From assembly GCA_015520605.1 (NCBI GenBank), contig WAPT01000013.1, forward strand, positions 1 to 26,759: DNA of 26,759 nt, written 5' to 3'. This document shows, piece after piece, positions 6,307 to 20,295 of this stretch. A model generated the notes under the pieces. The model saw only the letters and a program-made list of their open reading frames with translations. It had not been told where the DNA came from and ran no database searches. Numbering within the stretch: the first letter of the stretch is position 1; each line of letters begins with the position of its first letter. The position numbers and the translations under genes were made by a program. The stretch is from Nanobdellati archaeon (GTDB lineage Archaea; EX4484-52; WAPT01).

Positions 6307-7370
6307 TCATTATGAGTTCGGATGGTTTTCTGAAAAGACGGAAGATGTTCCTTGAAAAAATGAAGAAGAACGGAATAAGCTGCTCCGTTCTTTATGCAAG
6401 GGATTTTCATCCCAACTTTTACTATCTGACCGGGGTCGTTGATTTTGTGTCGATATTGCTTGCTGACGCTGAAGATGATAAATTCGTTCTTTTTTTAACC
6501 TGTGAGGATCTTGTGCCGAAGGGTTTTGAGGGAGAGGTCAGAAAAATGGGAAAAGATTCCATTAAAGAGCTCTCTGTTCTTCTCAAAAACAGAAAAACCG
6601 TTTGCGTGGATTTCTCACTGCCCCACCACACCATATCAAGACTCTCCAGGGATATGAAAATTCCTCTCAGTAAGATGCGTGACATCTCTGAACTCATACT
6701 GAAGATGAGGGCTGTGAAGGACGATGCAGAGGTGGATAAAGTTAAGAAGTCCTGTGATATTTTGGAAAAGTTGTTTGAAATGGGTGAGAGTGAACCATTA
6801 TGGAAACATACTGATGAGGGTGCATATTTCCTACTCAAGAGATGGATGGCTGAGATGCAGGTTGATCCCGCGTTTGACCCTCTCGTTTGTTATGACGAAA
6901 ACAGCTCTATCATCCATGGTATAAAAAGCGGGAAAATGTGTGAAAGGGTTGCTCTTGTCGATATGGGTGTAAGGTTTCGGAATTACTGTAGTGATGCCAC
7001 CAACACGTACGTTTTTGATGAGGAATTGGAAAGGATAAGAGAAGTTTTGATTGAACTTCTTCATGAACTTTCCAGAAACGCTCGTGATGGCGTCAGAATT
7101 TCCGAGTTGTGTGACCATGCGGAAAGATGTCTCAAAGATTATGGATTTGGTGAGGAAGCGTACTTCAATTTTCACTCATTAGGACACGGAGTAGGGTTAG
7201 AGGTTCATGAAGAGCCCCTGCTCACAAAGAACAGCAATGCGGTGCTCAAGAAAAACATGACAGTCGCTTTTGAACCAGCAGTCTATTTTAAAAGGAAGTT
7301 TGGTATCAGGGTTGAGACCGTTGTGCTTGTAGGAAAAAGGAGAGGGAAGAAACTGATCAAAATTAGATAG
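6303..7370 (+). CDS. Xaa-Pro aminopeptidase/dipeptidase, M24 family
   Basis: NFYYLTG, RAVKD..E, VDMG...YCSDAT, HSLGHGVGLEVHE, EPAVY and GIRVE metal-ligand motifs. GTGA overlap with the upstream stop codon. Confidence 0.9.
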   Translation: MIIMSSDGFLKRRKMFLEKMKKNGISCSVLYARDFHPNFYYLTGVVDFVSILLADAEDDKFVLFLTCEDLVPKGFEGEVRKMGKDSIKELSVLLKNRKTVCVDFSLPHHTISRLSRDMKIPLSKMRDISELILKMRAVKDDAEVDKVKKSCDILEKLFEMGESEPLWKHTDEGAYFLLKRWMAEMQVDPAFDPLVCYDENSSIIHGIKSGKMCERVALVDMGVRFRNYCSDATNTYVFDEELERIREVLIELLHELSRNARDGVRISELCDHAERCLKDYGFGEEAYFNFHSLGHGVGLEVHEEPLLTKNSNAVLKKNMTVAFEPAVYFKRKFGIRVETVVLVGKRRGKKLIKIR

Positions 7371-7371
7371 A

Positions 7372-8712
7372 CTACTCCAGGTCATTCTGTCCCAGAACGG
7401 TTATGCTACTTTTTCTCTTCGTTTTTACTTCCCTCCCCACAAGAATAGATATACCTTTGCTTGCCGCCCTCAAGATTTCGTCAGTTATATCAGCATCCAC
7501 CACCACTGCTCTTGCGTTCTCCACCTGGGTAAGCGCTTTTTCCAGCTCTTTAAGGGGAACTCTACCGATAAACTCCAGTTTCTCGTTGAATATTGATGCT
7601 GCACGCGTTCCAACAAGATCTTCAAGTTCTCTTTTAAAAATATCTTTTATTTCTGGGTGGGTTTCTTCAATTTTTTCCATCCTTATAGAGATATTTTTTT
7701 TCTCCATTGATGACTGATCTTCCTCTTTTTTTTCACCAGTTCTTATATGTTTTGGTTTTGTATGTTTTCTTTCTTCCCGCACACCCACCGACAATGTCTG
7801 TTCTTTTTCATTGAATTTCTGTGTATTCTCTCTTTTTTTATCAATACCGTCTGCGGTAAACGACCCCTTTACTTCACTCAAATACTGCGTTCCCTGCTGA
7901 CCTCCAATCCCCTCTACCGGAACAGCCTCGCGCAGACACTTATACAGTTCCTTGCGCGTTAGCTCCTCTACCTCCTTACCACGTGGTGCCCTCGCCACAT
8001 AATCTATATCTGCTTTCTGAAGAAGCTCTTTGAGGATTAAATCACCACCCCTATCTCCATCCAGAAGGACGGTGACCTCCTTCTCTTTAGAAAGGTCGAT
8101 TATGGTCTGAGGGACGCTTGTTCCCTCGAGCGCTATTACATTCCTAATGCCGTGTTTGAGAAGGTTTATCACATCGGCTCTTCCTTCCACCACAATTATC
8201 TTGTCAGACTCCACAACCGCCGGACCGGCAGGCAGGCCTCTGTACTCCGTTATCTCATTTGCACGGACGGACTGCATGAGATCTTCCGTTATCTGTGAGG
8301 GTTCAGGGAGCTGAGCAAGAACCTGCTGAAGAAGCTCTTTTGCTCTGTCCACGATGTACTTCCTCTTTACAGTTCTCAAATCCTCCACATAAACCACTTT
8401 TATATTTGCGTTACACGGTCCTATTCGTTCTATGGTTTCAAGTGCTGCGGCTATAAGAACCGTTTCAGCTACATCAAGACTGGTGGGTATGGTTATTGTG
8501 CCCTCGGATTTGCCCTTGTCGTAAGTTATATCGACTTCAATTCTCCCCATCCGTCCAGTACGTTGTAGCTCTCTTAAATCAAGATCTGGTCCAAGCAAAC
8601 CCTCAGTTTGACCAAAGATGGCACCTATAACATCTGGCCTTTCCACATAACCAGAGGCTTTGAATTTGGCTTTAATGAGATATTTTACCGATGTCTGAGC
8701 AAGTTTAGCCAT
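7372..8712 (-). CDS. dnaG: Archaeal DnaG (TOPRIM primase-like, exosome-associated)
   Basis: KYLIKA, VERPDVIGAIFGQTEGLLG, LRELQRTGRMGRI, IIVVEGRADV, DGDRGG and EVEEL motifs. AGGTGA SD at 8720-8725. Confidence 0.96.
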   Translation of the reverse strand: MAKLAQTSVKYLIKAKFKASGYVERPDVIGAIFGQTEGLLGPDLDLRELQRTGRMGRIEVDITYDKGKSEGTITIPTSLDVAETVLIAAALETIERIGPCNANIKVVYVEDLRTVKRKYIVDRAKELLQQVLAQLPEPSQITEDLMQSVRANEITEYRGLPAGPAVVESDKIIVVEGRADVINLLKHGIRNVIALEGTSVPQTIIDLSKEKEVTVLLDGDRGGDLILKELLQKADIDYVARAPRGKEVEELTRKELYKCLREAVPVEGIGGQQGTQYLSEVKGSFTADGIDKKRENTQKFNEKEQTLSVGVREERKHTKPKHIRTGEKKEEDQSSMEKKNISIRMEKIEETHPEIKDIFKRELEDLVGTRAASIFNEKLEFIGRVPLKELEKALTQVENARAVVVDADITDEILRAASKGISILVGREVKTKRKSSITVLGQNDLE

Positions 8713-8745
8713 ATGAACATCACCTTGTGTGTTTTTTATTTATAG

Positions 8746-8963
8746 ATCCAACCCAGAAGCAACCCCACACCCACACCACCGCATTTATTCATCCAAGAAC
8801 CGTCATGTATCGTCATGTGCATTGTGAAAACAAATGTTGTTTAAGTTAGTGGGAAGTGAATATGAATTGCTCTGGGTTGGATGGTGAAGTATGGCCCACA
8901 TGTAACACAGCGCTTCATCGTAGGCCAGAGGCGCACTCTGGCTGCTGACGGGTGTGGGCCATA
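8746..8963 (-). ncRNA. Candidate structured RNA (two long hairpins) upstream of dnaG; family unknown
   Basis: Perfect 11-bp stem 8890-8900/8953-8963 with an inner 7-bp stem 8924-8930/8936-8942. A second stem of about 27 bp at 8746-8774/8856-8882 extends through G-U pairs only on the minus strand. Confidence 0.45.
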
Positions 8964-9001
8964 ATACCAGTCAAAAATAAAAATATGTATTTTTTAAAAT
9001 A

Positions 9002-9559
9002 TTACTCCTCTTGATCGTAACACACATCACACACCCATTTACCATTCTTGTACCTTAGCGCTTCGGAGTAGTTCCCGCAGCTTTCACACACCCCCTCCAT
9101 TATTTCCTCATCAGGTGCTTCTTCACCTGCTCCCTCTCCCCCCTCCACAATTTTCAACTCCTCTTCCAGCACTTCCAGAATAGAGGGGAACGTGTTAATT
9201 ATCGTCCTTTCTGACACTATACCGACGAACTTGTTGTTTTTATCCACCACCGGCAATCTGCCAATATTATATTTCCTCATTTTCTTAAGAGCGTCAAGCA
9301 CGCTTTCATCCTCACCTGCTGTGATAAGTTCAGAGCTCATTATTTCCATTGCCTTGTCCTCCAATTTCTTACCAGAAGCTATATTATAAACAACATCTCT
9401 GAGAGTTATTACTCCCACAACAGCCTCCCTCTCAACGACCAACACCTCAGAAGCGTTGGCATCCTTCATTTTCTTTGTAATATCAACAATCTTATCGCCA
9501 GATAAAACCTTCACAAATTGTGTATCCATAATATCCTTGACCTTATATTCCCTGAACAT
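9002..9559 (-). CDS. CBS-pair protein with C-terminal zinc ribbon
   Basis: Two CBS repeats (VKDIM...VGVITLRD; EIMS...IGRLPVVD...VGIVS) and GVCESCG...WVCDVC. ATG 9559 follows a GGTGGTG SD. Confidence 0.88.
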   Translation of the reverse strand: MFREYKVKDIMDTQFVKVLSGDKIVDITKKMKDANASEVLVVEREAVVGVITLRDVVYNIASGKKLEDKAMEIMSSELITAGEDESVLDALKKMRKYNIGRLPVVDKNNKFVGIVSERTIINTFPSILEVLEEELKIVEGGEGAGEEAPDEEIMEGVCESCGNYSEALRYKNGKWVCDVCYDQEE

Positions 9560-9629
9560 ACACACCACCACCAGAAGTTTTAATAACGATAAAGTGGGAT
9601 AAATTTATTAAGGGTTCTGGTGCTGTGTT

Positions 9630-9986
9630 ATGTCATACAAGAAGGGGTATAAGTTTGAGTGGGAGGTTAAGAAGTTTCTGGAAAAGAAGGGCTACTACGT
9701 CATACGCTCCGCAGGGAGTAAAAAGCCAGACATAATTGCAGGGAAAGAGGGCAACATTATAGTTGTGGAATGTAAATACACGGCTAAAAGCAAGTTATAT
9801 TTACTAAAGGATGAGGTAAATAACCTAATATATGTGGCCTCAATGTTCAGAGCCAAACCAATATACTTAATTAAAAAGAAGAACTCTGGTTTGTTTGTTG
9901 TTGAAATACACCATTTAAAAGAATTAGACGGACACTATTTTTTCGTTGATTTAGATAAGTTAAAAAATAAGTTAAAAATAGAATAA
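9630..9986 (+). CDS. hjc: Holliday junction resolvase Hjc
   Basis: Y.KG..FE.E...L...GY.VIRSAGS..PDIIAG....VVECK PD-(D/E)xK signature. Confidence 0.9.
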   Translation: MSYKKGYKFEWEVKKFLEKKGYYVIRSAGSKKPDIIAGKEGNIIVVECKYTAKSKLYLLKDEVNNLIYVASMFRAKPIYLIKKKNSGLFVVEIHHLKELDGHYFFVDLDKLKNKLKIE

Positions 9987-10013
9987 ATTAAATCAACAAT
10001 TTTGTGTAGTTTT

Positions 10014-10193
10014 TTATGTGGTTTTTGGTAGTATTCCGACCCTCTCCAATAAGAACCAAAGAGTTATGAAAAACAAGAGAATAATAGAAAGGTAGGTTGT
10101 TGTATCTAGATTTTTAGTTGTAAAAAAAGATTTTGTTGATTTATAAAAAATGTAGAAAACAACTACATCCCTTAAATAAGATCTTAACCCCAT
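10014..10193 (-). CDS. Small hypothetical membrane protein (about 59 aa)
   Basis: ATG 10193, two hydrophobic segments ending in WFLLERVGIL. It fills the gap between hjc and the HTH gene. Confidence 0.55.
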   Translation of the reverse strand: MGLRSYLRDVVVFYIFYKSTKSFFTTKNLDTTTYLSIILLFFITLWFLLERVGILPKTT

Positions 10194-10257
10194 AACAACA
10201 TAAAATAATAATTTCAATTTTTAAATAAGTGTTCTTAAAATAAAATTTTGAGTGTGT

Positions 10258-10986
10258 ATGGAGGAAAGAAACTACACGCCGTTTGAAAAGGCAAAGAGAA
10301 TGCTTGCAGTACAGATAGCTGGAGAAATTGTTCTCTCTAACGATCCAGGGGTTGTCATTCAGAAGTGGAGAACAATATTCAAAATACCTCAGAGAAGACT
10401 CGCTCAAGAGTTGGGAATAATGCCATCCGTCATTTCTGATTATGAAAGTGGGAGAAGAAAATCTCCCGGAGTTAAATTCATAAGAAAACTTGTTGATGCA
10501 ATACTAAACATTGATGAAAAAAGAGGAGGGGATATAATAAAAGAGTATTCTACTTTATTCCCAGAGGAAAAAATAAGTGATGTTATATTAAGTATGAAAG
10601 AATTCGAGAGACCCGTCTCTCTTGAAAAGTTCGCTGAAACTATAGATGGGTATGTTGTTATCAATAGTGATGTTAAGAAGTATATTTTTGGATATACTAT
10701 TATAGATTCAGTGAGAGCTATAATAGAACTATCACCAGCAGAATTAGTTAAGATGTATGGATTAACGACAGAAAGGGCACTAGTATTCACAAACATTACA
10801 CACGGTAGGTCCCCATTCATAGCAATCAAAGTTACTAATTTAAGACCGGGTGTTGTTGTGTTCCATGAAATTGATAAATTAGATAGTATAGGTAGAAGAA
10901 TAGCTGAAGTTGAAAACATACCTGTTATCCTTTCTAGAATAAAAAGTGTCGAAGAAATTATTCGAAGATTGAAATGTTTAGAGTAG
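10258..10986 (+). CDS. XRE-HTH transcriptional regulator (COG1709-like)
   Basis: IAGEIVLS..PG..I.KWR, SVISDYESGRRKSPG, GYTIIDS, ERALVFT....GRSP.IAI motifs. Confidence 0.85.
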   Translation: MEERNYTPFEKAKRMLAVQIAGEIVLSNDPGVVIQKWRTIFKIPQRRLAQELGIMPSVISDYESGRRKSPGVKFIRKLVDAILNIDEKRGGDIIKEYSTLFPEEKISDVILSMKEFERPVSLEKFAETIDGYVVINSDVKKYIFGYTIIDSVRAIIELSPAELVKMYGLTTERALVFTNITHGRSPFIAIKVTNLRPGVVVFHEIDKLDSIGRRIAEVENIPVILSRIKSVEEIIRRLKCLE

Positions 10987-11109
10987 ACCCCTTTATTTCA
11001 TATGGATGATATAATAATATCATTGTATATTATATAGTTTTGTTATATAACATTGTTATATTTTGTGGTGATGTTTTAATAAGAAGTTTCACATGAAATA
11101 AAGGGGTCT
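10985..11109. other. Replication origin oriC: inverted ORB pair around an AT-rich unwinding element
   Basis: TCCATATGAAATAAAGGGGTCT (minus strand, 10985-11006) and TTCACATGAAATAAAGGGGTCT (plus strand, 11088-11109) match at 20/22 positions. They flank an 81-bp very AT-rich spacer directly upstream of cdc6. Confidence 0.85.
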
Positions 11110-11195
11110 CTGTAAAGAAGGTGTGTGAATTGTTTAAATTTTTTACTAACAACAACCTTAACTTACCGAAAGTTCAAGTAATTCGTGTGGTTCGT

Positions 11196-12434
11196 ATGGA
11201 GAATAAACAACTCACACATTTCACAACACCACCACAACAAACTCTTGAAAATTTATTTGAAAGTTTTATGAATAAAGAATCTATTTTTAGAAATAAAGAT
11301 GCACTTTCTATTAAATACTCACCGGAAAAAATCTACCATAGAGATGAACAGATCAATGCTTTAAGTAGAATTCTTGCACCTATGCTTAGAAATGAAAAAC
11401 CATCTAATGTTTTTATCTACGGTTTGACAGGTACAGGTAAAACTCTCGTAACGACTTATGTCACCACCAATCTCGAAAACTTCACAATAAAACACAACAT
11501 TCCTTTGAAAGTACTTTTCGTTAATTGTAAAATGAAGAAAGTTGCCGATACAGAGTACAGACTTTTGGCTTATCTTTCTTCTTTACTCGGAGAGGGTGTG
11601 CCTGCAACAGGACTTCCGACTGATGAAGTTTACAGACGGTTTTATTCAGCGCTGGAAAATATTGGTGGGAATGTTGTTATCGTGCTTGATGAGATAGATG
11701 CTCTTGTGAAAAAGGTGGGTGATGAACTTCTCTATAACTTCACGAGAATGTGCGAAACGATAAAAGATGTTAATCTTAGTCTTATTGGTATCTCGAACGA
11801 TCTGTCCTTTATGGAGTATTTGGATGCCAGAGTCAAATCCTCCCTTTCTGAAGAGGAGATAATATTTCCACCATACAACTACGAACAGTTAAAGGACATC
11901 CTTTTTGATAGAGCTATGGTGGCGTTCAACCCGGGTAAGATTGATGAGGCTGCCATAACTAAATGTGCAGCCCTTGCAGCGCAGGAACATGGTGATGCGA
12001 GGAGAGCACTCGATCTTTTAAGGATAGCTGGAGAAATAGCGGAGAGAAACGGTGATGAGAGGGTTGTGGAGAAACACATAGACTTAGCGGAGGAGAAACT
12101 CGATCTGGATAGGATGAGTGAAGCAGCAAGGGTGTTGCCGAAACACTCCAAGATAGTGCTTTATACTGTATTGTGTTTGCTCCGAAATAGGGATAAAGTC
12201 CTTACAGGAGACATACAAAAATACTACGAACATATCTGTGAGCAACTCGGCGTGAGACCTCTAACTCAAAGGAGAATATCTGATATCATTGCTGAGCTGG
12301 ATATGCAGGGTTTGATAAACGCGAGCGTCATTTCAAAGGGCAGGTATGGAAGAACAAGGGAGATAACACTCTCCCTCTCAAAAGCGACACACGATAAAAT
12401 ACTCTTGCAACTCAAACAGGAATTAGATTTATAA
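11196..12434 (+). CDS. cdc6: Orc1/Cdc6 replication initiator
   Basis: IFRNKDAL...Y.P....HRDEQI, Walker A GLTGTGKT, Walker B IVLDEID, RVKSSL, FPPY...QL..IL, GDARRALDLLR, and wHTH ELDMQGLI...SKGRYGRT. Confidence 0.96.
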   Translation: MENKQLTHFTTPPQQTLENLFESFMNKESIFRNKDALSIKYSPEKIYHRDEQINALSRILAPMLRNEKPSNVFIYGLTGTGKTLVTTYVTTNLENFTIKHNIPLKVLFVNCKMKKVADTEYRLLAYLSSLLGEGVPATGLPTDEVYRRFYSALENIGGNVVIVLDEIDALVKKVGDELLYNFTRMCETIKDVNLSLIGISNDLSFMEYLDARVKSSLSEEEIIFPPYNYEQLKDILFDRAMVAFNPGKIDEAAITKCAALAAQEHGDARRALDLLRIAGEIAERNGDERVVEKHIDLAEEKLDLDRMSEAARVLPKHSKIVLYTVLCLLRNRDKVLTGDIQKYYEHICEQLGVRPLTQRRISDIIAELDMQGLINASVISKGRYGRTREITLSLSKATHDKILLQLKQELDL

Positions 12435-12456: not shown

Positions 12457-13983
12457 ATGGACGCTGTCCAAAAACTCATTCAGGATCTTATGGAGCGCGG
12501 AATTCTTATCGAACCGTCAGCTTTTGATTTCATAAAACAACACAACATACCACCCGATAAGATTTATTCTTTAAAAATTGAGGAGGGGGTACTCACAAGA
12601 AAACACCTCGAACCGCTTATCGGTGGTGTAGGTTGTGAAGGGAGAAGAGACGAAAATGAGAATATGGGAAACACTTCCAATTTACTTGCTTTTGTTGAGA
12701 TTGTAAGGAAAAAGAAAAGAGCAATAGCAGAAGAGTATGATTTTTCAGTGGTGGTTGAAAACAAAGAGACTAATAATGGAGAAATTTCCCAAAAAGGTGT
12801 GGAAATTTTCGTAGAAATGTTTAAAGATAGGTACGAAAGGCTGCGCGATTTACTTGTTCAGAGAGCCGAACTCAGGAACGCGATATCAATAGGCAGGCTC
12901 AAGGACGCGAGAAATCTCGAAGGGGAGGTTGTGGTAATAGGGCTTGTCAGAACAAAAACAAAAACTAAATCTGGAAGTTACATACTCGAACTGGAGGATC
13001 CAACCGGAGTGGTGAGTGTTTTCGTCAGAGAGGAAGCTTCAAAACTGGCCGAATATGTAGTGGAGGATGAGGTGATAGGTGTTAGAGGTACGTTCAACGG
13101 AAATTTCTTGTACGCTTCGAATATAGTGTTTCCCGACATACCTATCCCCACAGGAGTAAATAAGGTCAAAGATCCTGTTGCAGCAGTCTTCATTTCCGAT
13201 CTGCATTATGGGAGTAAGCAGTTTATAGTAGACATTGAAAGAAGGTTTCTTAGGTGGATAAATGACAAAAATGATGAGCTCGCATCTAAGGTTAAATACA
13301 TCTTCATAGCGGGAGATCTCGTCGATGGTATAGGGATTTATCCAGAGCAGGAGGATGATCTTCTCATCAAAGACATCTATAATCAGTACGAGCTTCTGGA
13401 AAGGTTCATTGAAAGAATCCCCGAACACATAGCGGTGGTGTTGTGTCCTGGCAACCACGATGCGGTTAGAAGTGCGGAACCACAACCACCCATCCCTAAA
13501 GACTTTGTCCCGAACCTTTATTCAATGAGTAATATTTTTATGGCGACCAATCCAGCTTACGTGAGAATACACGCGATGGATGGGGAGAAGGGAGTTCTGG
13601 TTCTGATGTATCACGGTTATAGCTTTACATCCATGATAGACGCCATGACACCTATAAGGAAGCACGGCACCACACATCCACAGTATGTTATGAGGGAGAT
13701 ATTAAAAAAGAGACACCTCGCCCCCACATACGGATGTGTGATTCAGGTACCATATCCCAAAGATCAGCTCGTGATAGATAAAGTGCCGGACATATTTCAC
13801 ACAGGAGATTTGCACTCTCACGGTGTTGATAATTATAAGGGCGTAACGCTCATAAGTTCGTCAACTTTTCAGGGGCAGACGGCCTTCATGGACAGGGTTG
13901 GACACGTGGCGAATCCGGGCAAGATAACGGTTGTGGAACTTAACACAAGAGACGTCAGAGTGCTCGATTTTTACGGAGGATAG
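12457..13983 (+). CDS. polB: DNA polymerase D small (proofreading) subunit DP1
   Basis: OB fold (LELEDPTG) and calcineurin-like phosphoesterase motifs ISDLHYGS, GDLVDGIGIYP, PGNHD, YHG, RHLAPTYG. Confidence 0.95.
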   Translation: MDAVQKLIQDLMERGILIEPSAFDFIKQHNIPPDKIYSLKIEEGVLTRKHLEPLIGGVGCEGRRDENENMGNTSNLLAFVEIVRKKKRAIAEEYDFSVVVENKETNNGEISQKGVEIFVEMFKDRYERLRDLLVQRAELRNAISIGRLKDARNLEGEVVVIGLVRTKTKTKSGSYILELEDPTGVVSVFVREEASKLAEYVVEDEVIGVRGTFNGNFLYASNIVFPDIPIPTGVNKVKDPVAAVFISDLHYGSKQFIVDIERRFLRWINDKNDELASKVKYIFIAGDLVDGIGIYPEQEDDLLIKDIYNQYELLERFIERIPEHIAVVLCPGNHDAVRSAEPQPPIPKDFVPNLYSMSNIFMATNPAYVRIHAMDGEKGVLVLMYHGYSFTSMIDAMTPIRKHGTTHPQYVMREILKKRHLAPTYGCVIQVPYPKDQLVIDKVPDIFHTGDLHSHGVDNYKGVTLISSSTFQGQTAFMDRVGHVANPGKITVVELNTRDVRVLDFYGG

Positions 13984-13996
13984 AAGTAGACAATCT

Positions 13997-14230
13997 CTAC
14001 TCTTCGTCTATGGGTTTTTTGATCTCCTCAAAAGGAAAGATATTTTTTAGCACGTTGTGGATGTATTTGGAGTCCACAAGCTCCCTGAAAACTATGAGAA
14101 CACTCTTCCTGACATCCTCCTTATCAAGCTCTTCAATTTCGTAATCCTCAACATACTCACTATTCTTCAGAGCATTCTCAACATCTTCCCTTCTGGCATC
14201 TAAAATGATCTCAATCATCGACACACGCAT
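13997..14230 (-). CDS. Small acidic hypothetical protein (possible beta-alpha-beta-beta-alpha fold)
   Basis: 77-aa ORF with a protein-like E/K-rich composition. A TTTATAAAA box (14254-14262) about 24 nt upstream of the ATG suggests a leaderless transcript. Confidence 0.65.
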   Translation of the reverse strand: MRVSMIEIILDARREDVENALKNSEYVEDYEIEELDKEDVRKSVLIVFRELVDSKYIHNVLKNIFPFEEIKKPIDEE

Positions 14231-14303
14231 GAGGAAATATTGTGGCTGTTAACTTTTATAAACTTCTCTCGTGTTAATACTGGAAAATTTTCCCACTTAA
14301 TCA

Positions 14304-14321
14304 CCGAAAAATTTATATATA
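14304..14321 (+). promoter_or_regulatory. BRE-TATA promoter candidate with no long ORF downstream
   Basis: CCGAAAAA-TTTATATATA; predicted start near 14340. Confidence 0.5.
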
Positions 14322-14352
14322 AGTTAGTATAATATATTAGGGTCAACCTTCT

Positions 14353-14642
14353 CCTTACTGAAAAGAAATGAAAAATCGGGCTCGGACGGTGGGGGTTGCG
14401 TGCCTTCTTGCCTCCTACCTCCGCCCTCCGATTAATTTCACATAATTTCTTCAAAGGGGTTAACACGAGCAACAACCATCCCGGTCGTCCACACACCATC
14501 CATCAGAAGAAAGATGGAATGTGGAGTCATCCCGGGATTATTCTGTGGAGCATCCCGGGATAATGTACATAACTTTGGCTACCCACTTGCAGAACTTCCA
14601 TAGATTTAGATGGATGTGGGTAGCCGCCATTTTAACTACCTC
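14353..14642 (-). ncRNA. Candidate three-hairpin RNA or small-ORF transcript; family unknown
   Basis: Minus-strand promoter at 14665-14681, hairpins at 14577-14625, 14478-14538 and 14374-14433, then a U-rich tract (TTTTTCATTTCTTTTC). Confidence 0.4.
14520..14564 (+). repeat. Tandem direct repeat of about 21 bp containing palindrome ATCCCGGGAT
   Basis: TGTGGAGTCATCCCGGGATTAT and TGTGGAG-CATCCCGGGATAAT. Confidence 0.7.
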
Positions 14643-14664
14643 AATTCAAAGTATGGTTTGATTA

Positions 14665-14681
14665 TTTATAAATTTTACCCG
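14665..14681 (-). promoter_or_regulatory. BRE-TATA promoter candidate
   Basis: Minus strand CGGGTAAAA-TTTATAAA; predicted start near 14642. Confidence 0.5.
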
Positions 14682-14708
14682 AAATTTTCGAAGATCTTCG
14701 ACAATAGA

Positions 14709-15365
14709 CTAAACGCTTGATTTGAGTTCCAATAACTCTCTTCTAAGCTTTGCGAGCTCGGTTAGATATTCCCTTTCCTTAGATATTTGGGACACTTTTC
14801 TTACTTTCCTCGCAGCTTCCTTACTTTCCTCACCCTTTCTTGCTTTACTTTTTTCTTGCTTTTTACTTACCTCTACTTCAACCTGAGCGGTAGCTTCAGT
14901 CTTTTTTATGTTCTTTGCTTCATCCAGAATCGTTGCGGTGCTGCTCTTTATCACTTCATCCACAAGCTTGTCGATGGCAAGAAGCATCTCATTAACCATG
15001 GCTTCGATTCTATTCAATCTCTCATGGTTGTTCAGCACAACTTTACCGAGGATACTTATGTTATCGACTATCTTTTCAAGTGAAGCAACGCGTTGCTCTA
15101 ACAGACCAAACGAGGATGCGAAGTTATTGGTGTTGGAACCTGATGCTTTGCTGGAGGATTTCAACTCATTAACTACAGATACAATCCCATCTATGTCCGT
15201 GTGAAGTTGGTGAAGGTAAGTGTAAATTTTCTGGAACTCATCCTGAATGTACGAGCTAAGCTGGTTATAGTTGTTTTCGAGTCCGAGAACACGGTTCTTT
15301 ATCTCCTCAAGCTCGCTGTTTGGTTTTTTTCCTTCCTTTTTCCCAAAAAGAAAACTTAACACCAT
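14709..15365 (-). CDS. Hypothetical coiled-coil protein
   Basis: Starts MVLSFLFGKK at ATG 15365, which avoids overlap with DP2. Heptad-rich helices, a charged linker and a C-terminal helix. Divergent from DP2. Confidence 0.75.
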   Translation of the reverse strand: MVLSFLFGKKEGKKPNSELEEIKNRVLGLENNYNQLSSYIQDEFQKIYTYLHQLHTDIDGIVSVVNELKSSSKASGSNTNNFASSFGLLEQRVASLEKIVDNISILGKVVLNNHERLNRIEAMVNEMLLAIDKLVDEVIKSSTATILDEAKNIKKTEATAQVEVEVSKKQEKSKARKGEESKEAARKVRKVSQISKEREYLTELAKLRRELLELKSSV

Positions 15366-15420
15366 ACGCTCTATATGGGACTGAAAGTAAATAAAAGTTT
15401 TGATATACGGATATGTTGTC

Positions 15421-18400
15421 ATGAAGATCCGCGATTACTTCGAAATGATCAGAAAGGAGTGTGAGAGAGCTTACGAAATAGCCAACAGGGCCAGGGACAA
15501 GGGATTCGATCCTGAGGATAGAGTAGCAATACCTGTAGCTGAAGACCTTGCCGCGAGGGTGGAAGGCCTTGTATCAATAATATTCCCTCAATTATTCGAT
15601 TCTGGGTTGAAGGAGAGGATAAGGGAACTGGAGAAAGAATATCATAAAAACGACGAGAGAGTGGCATTTATAGTAGGAAAAGAAGTGGCTCTTGACAAAT
15701 TTTGTAACTTCTATTCAAAAGAGAAAGCTGCCGAAGCCGGTGTGAGGGTCGCAGTTGCATACTTAACACTTGGTGTTGTTACAGCTCCTCTTGAAGGCAT
15801 ATCTAAAGTCAAGATTAAGAAAAATAAAGACGGAACGGAATACCTCGCTATTTACTACGCCGGTCCGATCAGAAGCGCCGGTGGTACAGCATCAGCTATG
15901 TCCGTTGTTGCTGCCGACTACATAAGAAGGGCTTTGGGGCTGGATCGCTACAAAGCGGAAGAAGTTGAGATACTCCGTTACTACACCGAAGTGGAGGACT
16001 ACTACAACCGTGTTGCCAAGAAGCAGTACCACCCGACCAAGGAGGAGATAGAGTTCATAATAAAGCATATGCCTGTAGAGATTACGGGAGAGCCAACAGA
16101 GAAGCTGGAGGTGAGCAACTATAAGGATCTGGAGAGGGTAGAGACCAATAGAATAAGGGGGGGAATGTGTTTGGTTCTCCTTGACGGCCTTCCCTTAAAG
16201 GCGGAGAAAGTACTGAAGAGGATAAAGAAGTACGGCCATGAATTCGACCTGGAGGACTGGCTCTGGCTGGAGGAGTTCGTTCAGCTGAAGCACAGGATTC
16301 ATGCTGCCAAGGAAGTCGACGAAGATTCCAGCGTTAAGTACGTGCCGAGCACCAAATACCTTGAAAAGATCGTGGCCGGCAGGCCGATAATAGCGCACCC
16401 GGCAAGAAATGGGGGTTTCAGGCTCAGGTATGGCAGGGCAAGAACATGCGGTATTGCCGCAACGGCCATACACCCAGCTACGGCACACCTGATTGACTTT
16501 CTCGCAATAGGAACGCAGATGGCAACGGAAGCTCCGGGGAAAGCAACCGTAGTTACTGTTTGCGACTCGATAGAAGGCCCGGTGGTTCTCCTGAAAAATG
16601 GAGACATAGTTGAGCTCAAAAGCAGGGAGGGTGTCGAAAAGTACAGAAAAGATGTTGTCAAAATATTAAGTCTGGGAGACATACTTGTGCCGTTTGGCGA
16701 GTTCCTATCCAACAATCATGTTCTCCTTCCTGCAGCTTACTGCGAGGAGTGGTGGGCCCTGGAAGTTAAGAAAGCTTTGGAAGAGGGTAGGAAGTGTAGC
16801 ATTAACTTAACAAAGTATGTGGAAAAACCATACCCTGCTCCATCCTTGGAGGAGGCGATAAAGATCTCGCAGGAACTGGAAGTTCCACTCCATCCCTATT
16901 ACAACTTCTTCTGGCATGATATAACCAAAGAGCAGTTGAAGCTGCTGATAAACCACTTCTCCAGGAGTAAGCTCGAAGGAAACGAGTTAACCGTGAAGTT
17001 CGACAGGAAAGTTCACGAGGTTTTGCAGGAGCTGTGTGCGCCATGTGAAGTTAGGGATGAAAAAATAATCCTGAAGGGAAAAAGTATTGCGATTCACTTC
17101 TGTCTTGGCAGGCCTGATGAAGGTAACGTGAAGGAATTGATGGAAATTGTGGACTCATGCACATCCGTTATGGAAGCGCTACAGAAACTCAGTGGCATAA
17201 AAATAATGGAGAAAGGCCCTACCAGAATAGGGACGAAGATGGGAAGGCCCGAGAAGGCTGATAAGAGGGTGATGAAGGGCAGGCCGCAGATTCTTTTCCC
17301 CTGTGGACAGGAAGGGGGAAGGATGAGGAACATAATGGAAGCCTACTCAAAAGGATACGTGGAAGCGGAGTTCCCCCTGTACAAGTGTGAGAAATGCAAC
17401 GATTTTGTCTTCTACCCTACCTGTCCATTCTGCGGAAGTAGAACAACTCGTTACTACCAGTGCGTGAAGTGCAACAGGATAGTGAAGGAAGAGAAGCACT
17501 GCGGAACAGACGCGAGACCTTATGCTAAAATGAATGTGAAGATAAGGAAGTTTTTGGATGCTGCTCTCAAAAACTTAGGGATGAGTCCTCCTACACTGTT
17601 TAAAGGTGTGCGCGGTGTTTCGGGAGCGGAGAGAACCATGGAGAGGTTGGAAAAGGGACTGTTGCGTGTCATACATGGGCTGTACGTGAATAAGGACGGT
17701 ACGATAAGGTACGACAGCACCGATGTCCCTCTAACTCACTTCAAACCGAAAGAAATTGGCGTGAGTGTTGAGAAGTTAAAAGAGCTTGGTTATACTCATG
17801 ACATTTACGGCAACGAGCTAATACACGAGGATCAGGTTCTCGAGCTGATGCATCAGGATATAATAATCTCTGACAACGATGAGAGTTCTGCAGCGGAATA
17901 CTTATTGAAGGTAGCGCAGTTTGTGGATGAACTTCTCGTGAGGTTTTACGGGCTTGAGCCATACTACAACGCTAAAACAAAAGAGGATCTTGTAGGAAAG
18001 CTGGTGATAGGGCTTGCTCCACACACCTCAGCTGGAATTGTGGGTAGGATAATCGGATTCACAAAAGCAAGGGTGTGCTTTGCTCACCCCTTCTGGCATG
18101 CAGCGAAGAGAAGAAACTGTGATGGAGATGAGGACAGCATAATGCTTCTTATGGACGCTCTGCTAAACTTCTCCAGAAAGTATTTGCCAGCTACACGCGG
18201 AGCTTCAACTATGGATGCACCTCTCGTTTTAACCGTGCAGTTGAATCCAGAGGAGATAGATGACGAGGCATGGAATGTGGACATAGATGATCACTACCCT
18301 CTCGAGTTTTATTACGCCACCCTTCGTTATGAGATGCCCACTGAAGTTGAAGCTAGACCTGAAGTGGTGGAGGATGTGCTTGAAGAGGAAGAGATTCACA

Positions 18401-18876
18401 TTAAGTTCACTCATGACGCGTCAGACATTCACGATGCACCATTCAAAACAAGGTATGTGTTGTTGAAGAAGATGGAGGAAAAGATAGAGGAGCAGTTGAA
18501 GGTTGCAGAACTCATAAGAGCATGCGATGAGAATAAAGTTGCTGAGGCCGTCATAGTCAACCACTTCATGCGTGACATAAAAGGTAACCTAAGAACATTC
18601 TCCAAACAATCGTTTAGATGTGTGGATTGCAACGAGAAATACAGGCGTATGCCTCTGAGCGGGAAGTGTGAAAAGTGTGGTGGAAAGCTTCTGCTCACTG
18701 TGTCTGAAGGCACCATAAGAAAATACGTCGACCCTACCAAAATGCTTCTGGAAAGGTATAAAGTGTCCAGCTATGTTATTCAGGTGTTCCAGCTGCTTGA
18801 GAGAGACATAGATGATCTGTTTGGAAAGAAGGGGAGACAGGTTAATCTTTTCAGTCTTGCATCAAATAACGCATGA
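15421..18876 (+). CDS. polC: DNA polymerase D large subunit DP2 (no intein)
   Basis: DLAARVEGL, YAGPIRSAGGT, GGFRLRYGR, RIGTKMGRPEK, central Zn fingers, NKDGTIRYD, catalytic HAAKRRNCDGDED, MDAPL, and C-terminal Zn finger FRCVDC...CEKCGG. Confidence 0.97.
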   Translation: MKIRDYFEMIRKECERAYEIANRARDKGFDPEDRVAIPVAEDLAARVEGLVSIIFPQLFDSGLKERIRELEKEYHKNDERVAFIVGKEVALDKFCNFYSKEKAAEAGVRVAVAYLTLGVVTAPLEGISKVKIKKNKDGTEYLAIYYAGPIRSAGGTASAMSVVAADYIRRALGLDRYKAEEVEILRYYTEVEDYYNRVAKKQYHPTKEEIEFIIKHMPVEITGEPTEKLEVSNYKDLERVETNRIRGGMCLVLLDGLPLKAEKVLKRIKKYGHEFDLEDWLWLEEFVQLKHRIHAAKEVDEDSSVKYVPSTKYLEKIVAGRPIIAHPARNGGFRLRYGRARTCGIAATAIHPATAHLIDFLAIGTQMATEAPGKATVVTVCDSIEGPVVLLKNGDIVELKSREGVEKYRKDVVKILSLGDILVPFGEFLSNNHVLLPAAYCEEWWALEVKKALEEGRKCSINLTKYVEKPYPAPSLEEAIKISQELEVPLHPYYNFFWHDITKEQLKLLINHFSRSKLEGNELTVKFDRKVHEVLQELCAPCEVRDEKIILKGKSIAIHFCLGRPDEGNVKELMEIVDSCTSVMEALQKLSGIKIMEKGPTRIGTKMGRPEKADKRVMKGRPQILFPCGQEGGRMRNIMEAYSKGYVEAEFPLYKCEKCNDFVFYPTCPFCGSRTTRYYQCVKCNRIVKEEKHCGTDARPYAKMNVKIRKFLDAALKNLGMSPPTLFKGVRGVSGAERTMERLEKGLLRVIHGLYVNKDGTIRYDSTDVPLTHFKPKEIGVSVEKLKELGYTHDIYGNELIHEDQVLELMHQDIIISDNDESSAAEYLLKVAQFVDELLVRFYGLEPYYNAKTKEDLVGKLVIGLAPHTSAGIVGRIIGFTKARVCFAHPFWHAAKRRNCDGDEDSIMLLMDALLNFSRKYLPATRGASTMDAPLVLTVQLNPEEIDDEAWNVDIDDHYPLEFYYATLRYEMPTEVEARPEVVEDVLEEEEIHIKFTHDASDIHDAPFKTRYVLLKKMEEKIEEQLKVAELIRACDENKVAEAVIVNHFMRDIKGNLRTFSKQSFRCVDCNEKYRRMPLSGKCEKCGGKLLLTVSEGTIRKYVDPTKMLLERYKVSSYVIQVFQLLERDIDDLFGKKGRQVNLFSLASNNA

Positions 18877-19080
18877 ATTTCATATGATTTTTTGGAGAAT
18901 AACGTAATTTCATGTTATTTTTTCTATATCAGATGAATTTAACCTTTTTTAATGTTACATCATTTTCCACATGAAATGAAGGGGGGTTAAGTTCATGTAC
19001 TTCCTTCACGTCTCTTACCAAAATCTTTATAAAATTTATGGTAGGTTTTCCACATGAAACAAAGGGGTGTGTTAACTTCA
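18877..19080. repeat. Second ORB-like cluster in the convergent DP2/TctA gap
   Basis: TTCCACATGAAATGAAGGGGGG (18965-18986) and TTCCACATGAAACAAAGGGG (19048-19067), plus minus-strand cores CATATGAAAT (about 18877-18886) and ACATGAAAT (about 18907-18915) and AT-rich spacers. Confidence 0.75.
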
Positions 19081-20295
19081 TCACACCAAATAGTTCAGAA
19101 TTATCGGGAAGATGAGCGCAGCCATCAGTAAACTCTTCTTCACCGCCATACGGTAGGCAAGAATTCCGAGCAAACATGAAGTTAACATGATAAACACGCC
19201 AAGCAGTGATGCTTGGATAAAGGTTAAAACTATCAGAAAAAGCAATATTATAATGCTAAGCTTTCTGTAGTTGATTTCCACAAGGTTTGAAGCGAACCTT
19301 CTACCCGCTACAATCGTTATTGCGGTTGCTAGTGATGCCGATACAACCGTACACAATATTAGGAGGGGTATTAGACTCTTCCCCATCCCGAGACTCTGTA
19401 GAGCTATTGCCACACCCGATCTCGGTCTCAGAATTATAAAAAGAGACATAACGGCAATGAACGCATGCACGGTGTTCGCGCTTCCAAGCATGGTTATGAA
19501 GCTCCTCTCGCTCATCCTTCTCTTCAGCTGAGCGAGAACTATGGAGCTCTGCGTGGGCGTTATGCCGGGGAGCAATCCGGAAAGAATACCGGCAATGCTG
19601 CCAAGGAGGCTGTTAGTCGCGATATCCTTCCAGTTAATTTTGAAAGTCAGCTTTTGCCTCTCTATAGAGGGGGTGGTATGTATGCTCATGATTATTGTGC
19701 TCAATCCGAACAAACCTGTGAGCATCGCTGCCAGCGCATCACCACTCGTCATTGGCAAAGACAGAACAACGATACCAAGAAAGCAACTGAGCAGAATGAT
19801 GATCACTGCGCTTACCTTTTTTCTTTCACCCAACAGAAGAAGGAATATCACACTGATGAGAATGTAAGGTATGAACGACTTTACGGTATTATAAACTTCA
19901 TTTCCGAATGAAAAGAGGAGTGGAAGGAACAACACAGCAAATAAGGAGCCAAACAGTCCGCTTAGCGCTGAGTAAACCAAAGCAACGTAACCGTGTCCGC
20001 GCAGCGTTAGTCTATGTCCAGGCAGCACAGACAGGCAGGTTGACTCGTCAGGCGCTCCAACAAAAATGGACGGAATAAAGTCAACAAAAGTATGTGTTAT
20101 TGCCGCGCTCATTATGAACGTTATGGCTGGTGTAAGCAACAACGGGTTTGCGGAGAGCAAACTACTAATTAGGCTGACAAACAGAAAAGCAGCGGTGTTA
20201 ACATGAACACCGGGAATCAGACCCGTGAGCGTGCCAACGAGCACTCCAAGAAGCATTGCAAGGAGACAGAATACAAGTATGCTGACTAAGGGCAT
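19081..20295 (-). CDS. Tripartite tricarboxylate transporter TctA-like permease (DUF112)
   Basis: GTLTGLIPGVHVN, THTFVDFIPSIFVGAPD, SVLPGHRL...G.G, LTGLFG, GLLPG and RPRSG motifs; multi-TM. Confidence 0.85.
   Translation of the reverse strand: MPLVSILVFCLLAMLLGVLVGTLTGLIPGVHVNTAAFLFVSLISSLLSANPLLLTPAITFIMSAAITHTFVDFIPSIFVGAPDESTCLSVLPGHRLTLRGHGYVALVYSALSGLFGSLFAVLFLPLLFSFGNEVYNTVKSFIPYILISVIFLLLLGERKKVSAVIIILLSCFLGIVVLSLPMTSGDALAAMLTGLFGLSTIIMSIHTTPSIERQKLTFKINWKDIATNSLLGSIAGILSGLLPGITPTQSSIVLAQLKRRMSERSFITMLGSANTVHAFIAVMSLFIILRPRSGVAIALQSLGMGKSLIPLLILCTVVSASLATAITIVAGRRFASNLVEINYRKLSIIILLFLIVLTFIQASLLGVFIMLTSCLLGILAYRMAVKKSLLMAALIFPIILNYLV

Follow-up and report, generated by a model that had tools for sequence, protein, structure and literature searches.

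A tandem pair of ORB boxes behind the DP2 gene of a DPANN-type archaeon, a candidate accessory landing site for the replication initiator

Initiator boxes outside the origin, in described systems and in this locus

In the Thermococcales, cdc6 is flanked on both sides by ORB clusters, and the second cluster is inside dp1, ~1.5 kb from oriC (Matsunaga et al. 2007, PMC1904270). In Pyrococcus both clusters were reported to be bound by Cdc6 in vivo and in vitro, by ChIP and gel shift, and the same authors describe the second cluster as conserved in the order and propose for it a role in initiation, possibly by looping (PMC1904270). In Haloarcula hispanica, oriC2D holds 11 ORBs in 722 bp downstream of cdc6E; according to Wu et al. 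(2014, PMC3936714), it lowers the activity of oriC2, likely by initiator titration, and is not itself an origin. ORBs downstream of other haloarchaeal ori-cdc6 units have also been noted (PMC3936714, PMC4010727), and both initiator titration and looping have precedents in these reports (PMC3936714, PMC1904270). Sulfolobus oriC1 is described as having two inverted ORBs that are each required for firing, each ORB binding one Orc1-1 monomer with a defined polarity (PMC12141716), and non-origin Orc1 sites have been seen in Sulfolobus by ChIP-seq (PMC3607249). Two Thermococcus species are reported to have oriC and cdc6 hundreds of kb apart (PMC4640148). In bacteria, E. coli datA, a small group of initiator boxes at a distance from the origin, restrains initiation (cited in PMC3936714 and PMC4010727).

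Our study concerns a stretch of 26,759 bases, referred to as the window, from a DPANN-type archaeon, the closest DP2 relatives of which are MAGs labelled Nanobdellati, DPANN, Aenigmarchaeota or Nanohaloarchaeota. To our knowledge, replication control in DPANN archaea is unstudied, and a literature search found no description of ORBs in DPANN or Nanoarchaeota. The window holds an origin-like site beside the orc1/cdc6 gene and, behind the gene for the large subunit of PolD, a pair of boxes here called ORB A and ORB B (Table 1). A DP2 scan of a genome collection provided seven related loci for comparison (L001 to L007).

Like the dp1 cluster of the Thermococcales, the pair behind DP2 consists of extra ORBs across cdc6 from the origin, within the cdc6-PolD neighbourhood, and is conserved (window, L001 and L002). 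It differs in being intergenic, behind DP2 and 7.9 kb from the origin, rather than inside dp1 at ~1.5 kb, in comprising two full tandem ORBs rather than one ORB with mini-ORBs, and in persisting in L004 with neither cdc6 nor DP1 adjacent; moreover, a scan with a 24-nt matrix found no ORB of at least 8 bits inside the DP1 coding sequence of the window. As with oriC2D, a separate group of predicted initiator boxes lies downstream of the origin-initiator unit, but there are 2 full ORBs in 204 bp, placed after two further genes, and the high density of oriC2D is not seen. With Sulfolobus oriC1 (ORB1, ORB2 and ORB3 with a DUE) the site shares ORB-type boxes and an Orc1-1-type initiator, predicted to bind here, and also an arrangement of three boxes with one opposed, if a minus-strand core in the gap is counted. 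Unlike oriC1, which is described as an AT-rich region flanked by two full inverted ORBs, both needed (PMC12141716), the site has an opposed element without a G-string and an AT-rich stretch that is not conserved, and it is not beside the initiator gene. The comparison with datA is an analogy only, as datA belongs to the bacterial DnaA system and the proteins are unrelated. The pair is probably an additional landing site for the initiator, comparable to those described in other archaea, and probably not a full second origin. The present case is set apart by the intergenic position behind DP2, the presence of two full tandem boxes, the independence from cdc6 linkage and a conservation better than that of the origin boxes.

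Table 1. Positions of genes, ORB boxes and smaller elements in the 26,759-base window
Feature	Position	Strand	Remarks
HTH_3 regulator	10252-10986	+	
Origin-like gap	10985-11109		
Left full ORB, cdc6-proximal origin	10985-11008	-	
Right full ORB, cdc6-proximal origin	11086-11109	+	
orc1/cdc6 initiator gene	11121-12434	+	Pfam Cdc6_C, Cdc6_lid, AAA
DP1, PolD small subunit	12457-13983	+	Pfam DNA_pol_E_B, Metallophos
1.4-kb stretch between DP1 and DP2	13984-15399		
Conserved opposite-strand ORF between DP1 and DP2	14709-15422	-	
DP2, PolD large subunit	15400-18876	+	Pfam PolC_DP2_N, central and catalytic domains
Gap with ORB pair	18877-19080		204 bp, between convergent DP2 and TctA
Mini-ORB core CATATGAAAT, without G-string	18877-18886	-	0 mismatches to CAYATGAAAT; directly after DP2 stop
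AT-rich spacer, opposite-strand cores to ORB A	18887-18962		40-nt GC 0.20-0.25; includes T6 run after DP2
Second, weaker core AACATGAAAT	18907-18916	-	1 mismatch to CAYATGAAAT
ORB A, full box (dyad-like core and G6 string)	18964-18987	+	Matrix 38.2 bits
Inverted half-core TTAAGTTCATGT, 3' of ORB A	18987-18998		12-nt imperfect inverted repeat with 18969-18980, 83% complementary
AT-rich palindrome with TATA-box-like TTTATAAAATTT, between ORBs	19016-19043		Inverted-repeat search
ORB B, full box, same orientation as ORB A	19047-19070	+	Matrix 35.9 bits
TctA-family transporter gene, convergent with DP2	19081-20295	-	Pfam TctA, E 4.7e-53

Motif, initiator and conservation

The preliminary description of this DNA had placed two full ORB boxes with G-strings, starting 83 bp apart, in the 204-bp gap between two convergent genes, and this was confirmed, with gene ends at 18876 and 19081. 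Our data also bear out GTTAA(G/C)TTCAT directly 3' of both ORB A and ORB B, and the 3' flank of ORB B reaches into the TctA stop codon. The core and G-string that were said to be common to these boxes and the cdc6-proximal ORBs were recovered by pattern search, in which CACATGAAANNNAGGGG, allowing up to 2 mismatches, matched the window at 10988-11004 (-), 11090-11106 (+), 18968-18984 (+) and 19051-19067 (+). These four matches compare with a shuffle mean of 0.22, none of 100 shuffles reaching four, and all of them fall in two gaps, the cdc6-proximal gap and that between DP2 and TctA. The dyad core TTCCACATGAAA, of the mini-ORB type, is present without mismatch at 18965 and at 19048, and AGGGG stands 3 nt 3' of the core in all four boxes of the window and in 16 of 16 matrix sites. 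Compared by eye, the downstream boxes also contain 'TTCC' and 'GAA', which are given as core motifs of the ORBs of Pyrococcus (PMC1904270).

Exclusivity was quantified with a 24-nt matrix built from 15 sites, the scan of which covered 116,322 bases. It returned 16 sites of at least 20.5 bits, with the next best at 13.9, and every one of the 16 was upstream of cdc6 or downstream of DP2. The wide scattering of the motif that the preliminary description had named as an argument against its reading was thus not found within the 116 kb scanned.

The same motif occurs at an initiator-adjacent, AT-rich, inverted-repeat site, the cdc6-proximal origin, where inverted full ORBs flank a core of 10-16% GC and a 39-nt imperfect inverted repeat surrounds this DNA. 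The layout is repeated in L001 (329-439) and L002 (5748-5856). It had been suggested that the boxes behind DP2 could be part of an origin split by rearrangement; this is unlikely, because the cdc6-proximal site, complete in the window, L001 and L002, already has two inverted full ORBs and a low-GC core. The Cdc6 protein matched the NCBIfam ORC1-type equivalog with 515 bits against a cut-off of 501, and among solved chains it was closest to 2qby_A (E 8.5e-108), which is Sulfolobus Cdc6-1, and to 2v1u_A (E 2.1e-99), both of them ORB-bound structures. The encoded initiator is an Orc1-1-type protein, and a cognate initiator for the boxes is present. At the other side of this origin, the HTH_3 gene ends (10984-10986) inside the left ORB and is kept at the same place in L001 and L002 (83% identity in L002); its product may be a regulator linked to the origin.

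The block of cdc6, DP1 and DP2, as it had been termed, is not a single operon, because 1.4 kb with a conserved opposite-strand gene separates DP1 from DP2. That minus-strand ORF (237 aa) overlaps the start of DP2 by 23 nt and is kept in L001 (79%) and L002 (59%); it has no Pfam family, and its sole NCBIfam match is sub-threshold and L19e-like. ORF 14215-14499 (-), also between DP1 and DP2, had no match. The DP2 of the window, of 1,158 aa, has neither intein nor homing-endonuclease domains, and many DP2 relatives (e.g. P0004, P0012 and P0016) are ~1,620-1,650 aa long, with the intein/homing-endonuclease domains PF14528 and PF14890.

By-eye counts on the strings returned by the matrix scan gave an identity of ORB A to the window of 24/24 in L001, 24/24 in L002 and 20/24 in L004, and of ORB B of 24/24, 22/24 and 18/24, respectively, amounting for the two boxes to 46/48 in L002 and 38/48 in L004. 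The cdc6-proximal ORBs, in comparison, were identical at 33/48 positions between the window and L002, and are therefore less conserved than the downstream pair. Four-fold degenerate third positions of DP2 were identical to the window at 358/442 sites in L001 (0.81), 135/375 in L002 (0.36) and 63/280 in L004 (0.23), which indicates that neutral sites are essentially randomized in the latter two. Because the boxes stay largely identical while four-fold sites have fallen to these values, the comparison points to strong purifying selection on the downstream ORBs. In a three-way alignment of the window, L001 and L002, the invariant blocks were ORB A with its 3' flank, continuing through GTTAAGTT, then TTTATAAAATTT, and ORB B plus its flanking sequence; elsewhere the gap has diverged. 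The downstream pair is a genuine second ORB cluster, comprising predicted initiator sites under strong constraint.

This conservation bears on the reading that the boxes are not initiator sites, and either belong to another DNA-binding protein, such as the HTH_3 regulator, or are an inactive relic. HTH dimers read short dyads such as this core, and the HTH gene, which ends inside the left ORB of the origin and is conserved in L001 and L002, would fit such a protein. However, a core and a G-string at fixed distance are the signature of an ORB, here with the 'TTCC' and 'GAA' motifs described for Pyrococcus (PMC1904270), and a relic would not stay 46/48 identical while synonymous sites are at 0.36. 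We regard this reading as very improbable.

Occurrence and linkage in related loci

Conservation of ORBs downstream of polC in relatives, put forward earlier as a check, was found down to 58% DP2 identity. A tandem ORB pair in the same orientation follows DP2 in four of the seven related loci: L001 (95% DP2 identity) and L002 (82%) carry the exact 17-nt pattern twice directly 3' of DP2, and in L003 and L004 (58% DP2 identity) the pair was detected by a looser pattern, the core being CCACAGGAAATG in both copies. The spacing of the pair in the window and L001 to L004 is 83, 83, 82, 75 and 75 bp, respectively. The distance from the DP2 stop to the start of ORB A is 87-88 nt in four of these five genomes (window, L001, L002 and L004) and 309 nt in L003, and the full ORBs behind DP2 are on the plus strand in all five. 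In L005 and L006 a gene directly follows DP2, and no ORB was found there. L007 is uninformative, because its contig, which has post-stop sequence in common with L003, ends 209 nt past the tblastn match of DP2 (~190 nt past the stop), before the place where L003 carries its ORBs.

The neighbourhood of L001 and L002 is fully syntenic with the window. TctA is also 3' of DP2 in L001, L002 and L004, and a different gene takes this place in L003, where the downstream genes differ from those of the window and no cdc6 was found within 9.7 kb downstream. Upstream of DP2 in L004, 5.3 kb of sequence hold genes for a serpin, threonine synthase, phosphoglycerate mutase, a Yip1 protein and one unknown protein, with no cdc6 or DP1, and the ORB pair is still 87 nt behind DP2. 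The description of a cdc6-DP1-DP2 block bracketed by ORBs is therefore accurate for the window, L001 and L002, but not for L004, in which the pair occurs without cdc6 or DP1 beside DP2. Bracketing is lineage-specific, being confined to the clade of the window, and the ORB pair belongs with the 3' end of DP2, since L004 keeps it with neither of the other two genes nearby.

Further elements in the gap and readings of the pair

In addition to the two full boxes, the DP2-TctA gap harbours weaker elements, of which the opposite-strand cores were identified by short-pattern searches only. The core at 18877-18886 exactly matches that of the left ORB at the cdc6-proximal origin and is kept in L001 (8225-8234) and, as CACGTGAAAT, in L002 (13477-13486). 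L004 has a single CGTGAAAT in 9,812 bases, at 8895-8902 (-), 9 nt after its DP2 stop, which is weak evidence because the pattern was chosen after looking, and no opposing core was found in L003 by short-pattern searches. The core at 18907-18916 is kept in L001 (8255-8264) and absent from L002, and may be a chance match. Over the whole window the 10-mer core is not enriched, with 10 matches against 5.59 expected and 7 of 100 shuffles reaching 10; six of the 10 matches fall in the two gaps. The inverted half-core after ORB A is partly kept in L002. A micro-ORF of about a dozen codons (ATG to stop, by eye) on the minus strand over ORB A was dropped, as its ATG is not kept in L002.

The preliminary description saw in these elements the same divergent layout as at 10985-11109. 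Opposite-strand cores are indeed present at 18877 and 18907, but both full ORBs lie on one strand and the cores opposing them have no G-string, whereas at 10985-11109 full ORBs with G-strings oppose each other. The AT-rich stretch reported upstream of ORB A is likewise there, at 20% GC, but it is no lower than other gaps of the window: the 80-nt GC minimum of the DP2-TctA gap is 0.20, starting at 18877, and values of 0.20 and 0.16 occur at 2111 and 10172. AT-richness was given little weight as evidence of unwinding because other gaps are equally AT-rich. GC of the spacer is 0.15-0.25 in the window, L001 and L002 and 0.50-0.62 in L004, and its sequence has diverged in L002. Between the Hjc resolvase and HTH genes (9910-10251), GC over 80 nt falls to 0.16, as low as in the origin core, yet this gap contains no ORB.

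If the site were a second, firing origin, initiator bound to the opposite-strand core or cores and to ORB A would load MCM in head-to-head fashion across a spacer of 75-90 bp, with ORB B corresponding to the third box of three-ORB origins. The identity of the 18877 core with that of the left origin ORB, its retention in L001 and L002 and the single CGTGAAAT at the matching place in L004 agree with this, as do the low GC of the spacer in the window, L001 and L002 and a spacer length that is fixed (87-88 nt, stop to ORB A) even where the sequence diverges. Furthermore, the downstream ORBs are the best conserved ones, and a distance from cdc6 is no obstacle in itself, as oriC and cdc6 are reported to be far apart in some Thermococcales (PMC4640148). 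On the opposing side, however, there is no G-string, and a single mini-ORB was reported to bind Pyrococcus Cdc6 weakly (PMC1904270); L003 has no opposing core, the spacer of L004 is not AT-rich, and that of the window is no richer in AT than other gaps. The cumulative GC skew has its minimum at ~9.5-10 kb, beside the cdc6 origin, and does not turn at 19 kb, although over 27 kb it mostly tracks gene orientation and cannot separate sites 7.9 kb apart. A leftward fork would meet DP2, DP1 and cdc6 head-on, and two origins 7.9 kb apart would bring no obvious gain. Because the full ORBs have a single polarity and neither L003 nor L004 keeps an AT-rich stretch, a second firing origin, which had been among the possibilities raised at the outset, is not favoured; we hold it to be doubtful, with an appreciable but minor chance of being correct.

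The TATA-like element between the boxes raises a transcriptional role, in which Orc1/Cdc6 would serve either as a roadblock or insulator that separates the convergent transcripts of DP2 and TctA, or as a repressor of the element itself. The element, TTTATAAAATTT, is invariant in the window, L001 and L002, L003 and L004 carry a similar CTTTATATT in the corresponding position, the pair has a fixed position relative to the DP2 stop (87-88 nt), and archaeal Orc1/Cdc6 proteins are reported to have non-origin sites and to affect transcript profiles (PMC3607249). However, no conserved gene or RNA lies downstream of the element, which in the window would read antisense into TctA or DP2, and its separation from ORB B is not constant across clades (24 nt or 15 nt). 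The pair is also kept in L003, where the downstream gene is a different one and co-oriented. A transcriptional role is, in our view, improbable.

A small structured RNA gene, rather than a DNA-binding site, would also produce a conserved, non-coding block with a TATA-like element nearby, but here the conservation is concentrated in two copies of a 24-mer that is also present, inverted, at the cdc6 origin. This candidate was rejected. No Rfam family reached its gathering score and no tRNA was found, the folding z-scores (-0.05 on the plus strand and -0.49 on the minus strand) were no better than those of shuffles, and the consensus fold of five sequences had -4.7 kcal/mol, with 1 of 11 pairs compensatory. 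We attach to it hardly any probability.

The reading we prefer, tentatively and with slightly less than even confidence, is that the ORB pair is an accessory Orc1/Cdc6 landing site that modulates initiation and does not fire by itself. What the DNA itself shows is the motif, how exclusive it is, where it lies and how well it is conserved, and the presence of an Orc1-1-type initiator. The pair is probably not self-firing because it has neither an opposed full ORB nor a conserved unwinding stretch. Also counted for an accessory site are the retention of the pair where cdc6 and DP1 are not adjacent (L004) and where the downstream gene differs (L003), and the single polarity of the full ORBs behind DP2, which are inverted in none of the five genomes. 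Proximity to the initiator gene, which is usual but not universal for origins, is also lacking, as the pair is 7.9 kb from cdc6 in the window.

Initiator binding, relative affinity and a regulatory effect are what we infer for this accessory site. Each box would bind one initiator monomer with the same polarity, the dyad side facing DP2 and the G-string facing away, and the boxes are ~7-8 helical turns apart. Being near-consensus and invariant, the pair behind DP2 may be of high affinity and filled first, and the more degenerate, drifting ORBs at the cdc6-proximal origin may be filled only once more active initiator is available. The pair could in this way determine the amount of free or active initiator that remains available to the origin, or could help to build a higher-order complex with it.

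Several points count against an accessory site. Two sites are few for titration, compared with the 11 ORBs of oriC2D, and titration would need a low copy number of the initiator, which is expected in very small cells but is an assumption. On the other hand, DPANN cells are very small, and one molecule in a 300-nm sphere would correspond, by simple arithmetic, to roughly 100 nM, which is in the range of the half-binding values of Pyrococcus ORBs, reported as 110-240 nM (PMC1904270). The clade of the window also has opposite-strand cores and a stretch of 20% GC beside ORB A, and L004 has a possible core, which leaves some probability to an origin-like layout; the pair may even be the sole origin of L003 and of L004. 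The sampling of the window clade covers ~68 kb, and further ORB sites may exist elsewhere in the genome.

A broader proposal is that the conserved initiator landmark of this DPANN clade is the 3' end of polD-L and not cdc6, with a pair of top-affinity ORBs that serves either as an origin (ancestral or second) or, like datA, as a buffer or timer; we think this unlikely. If it were true, in nano-sized cells with few initiator molecules the buffer would decide when the weaker ORBs of the cdc6 origin fill, and the pair would amount to a minimal device for timing replication, made of two sites and physically coupled to the polymerase gene. Boxes that exceed those of the origin in conservation and survive the loss of cdc6 linkage point to a site that the cell cannot do without. 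The four 24-bp sites and one protein offer a simple in vitro system for studying site-affinity hierarchy in archaeal initiation. Origin-prediction tools would either miss the DP2 site, as it has no adjacent cdc6, or call it a second origin.

Minor observations were made on the related loci. In L001, the TctA homologue at 8432-9554 matches in two frames that meet near 8547, indicating a frameshift or a sequencing error, and ORF 8277-9644, derived from this two-frame match, crosses the ORB region. L007 has a 26-nt hairpin-forming repeat twice 3' of DP2 (6629-6654 and 6710-6735, 81 nt apart), which is not ORB-like. Weak ORB-like 24-mers occur on the minus strand at the same place inside DP2 in L004 (5865-5888, 8.2 bits) and L007 (3378-3401, 12.9 bits), and probably reflect coding conservation and chance. 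L003 is labelled as a Methanosarcinales MAG, and its DP2 end and ORB pair are nearly the same as those of L004, an uncultured archaeon; the L003 contig may be mis-binned.
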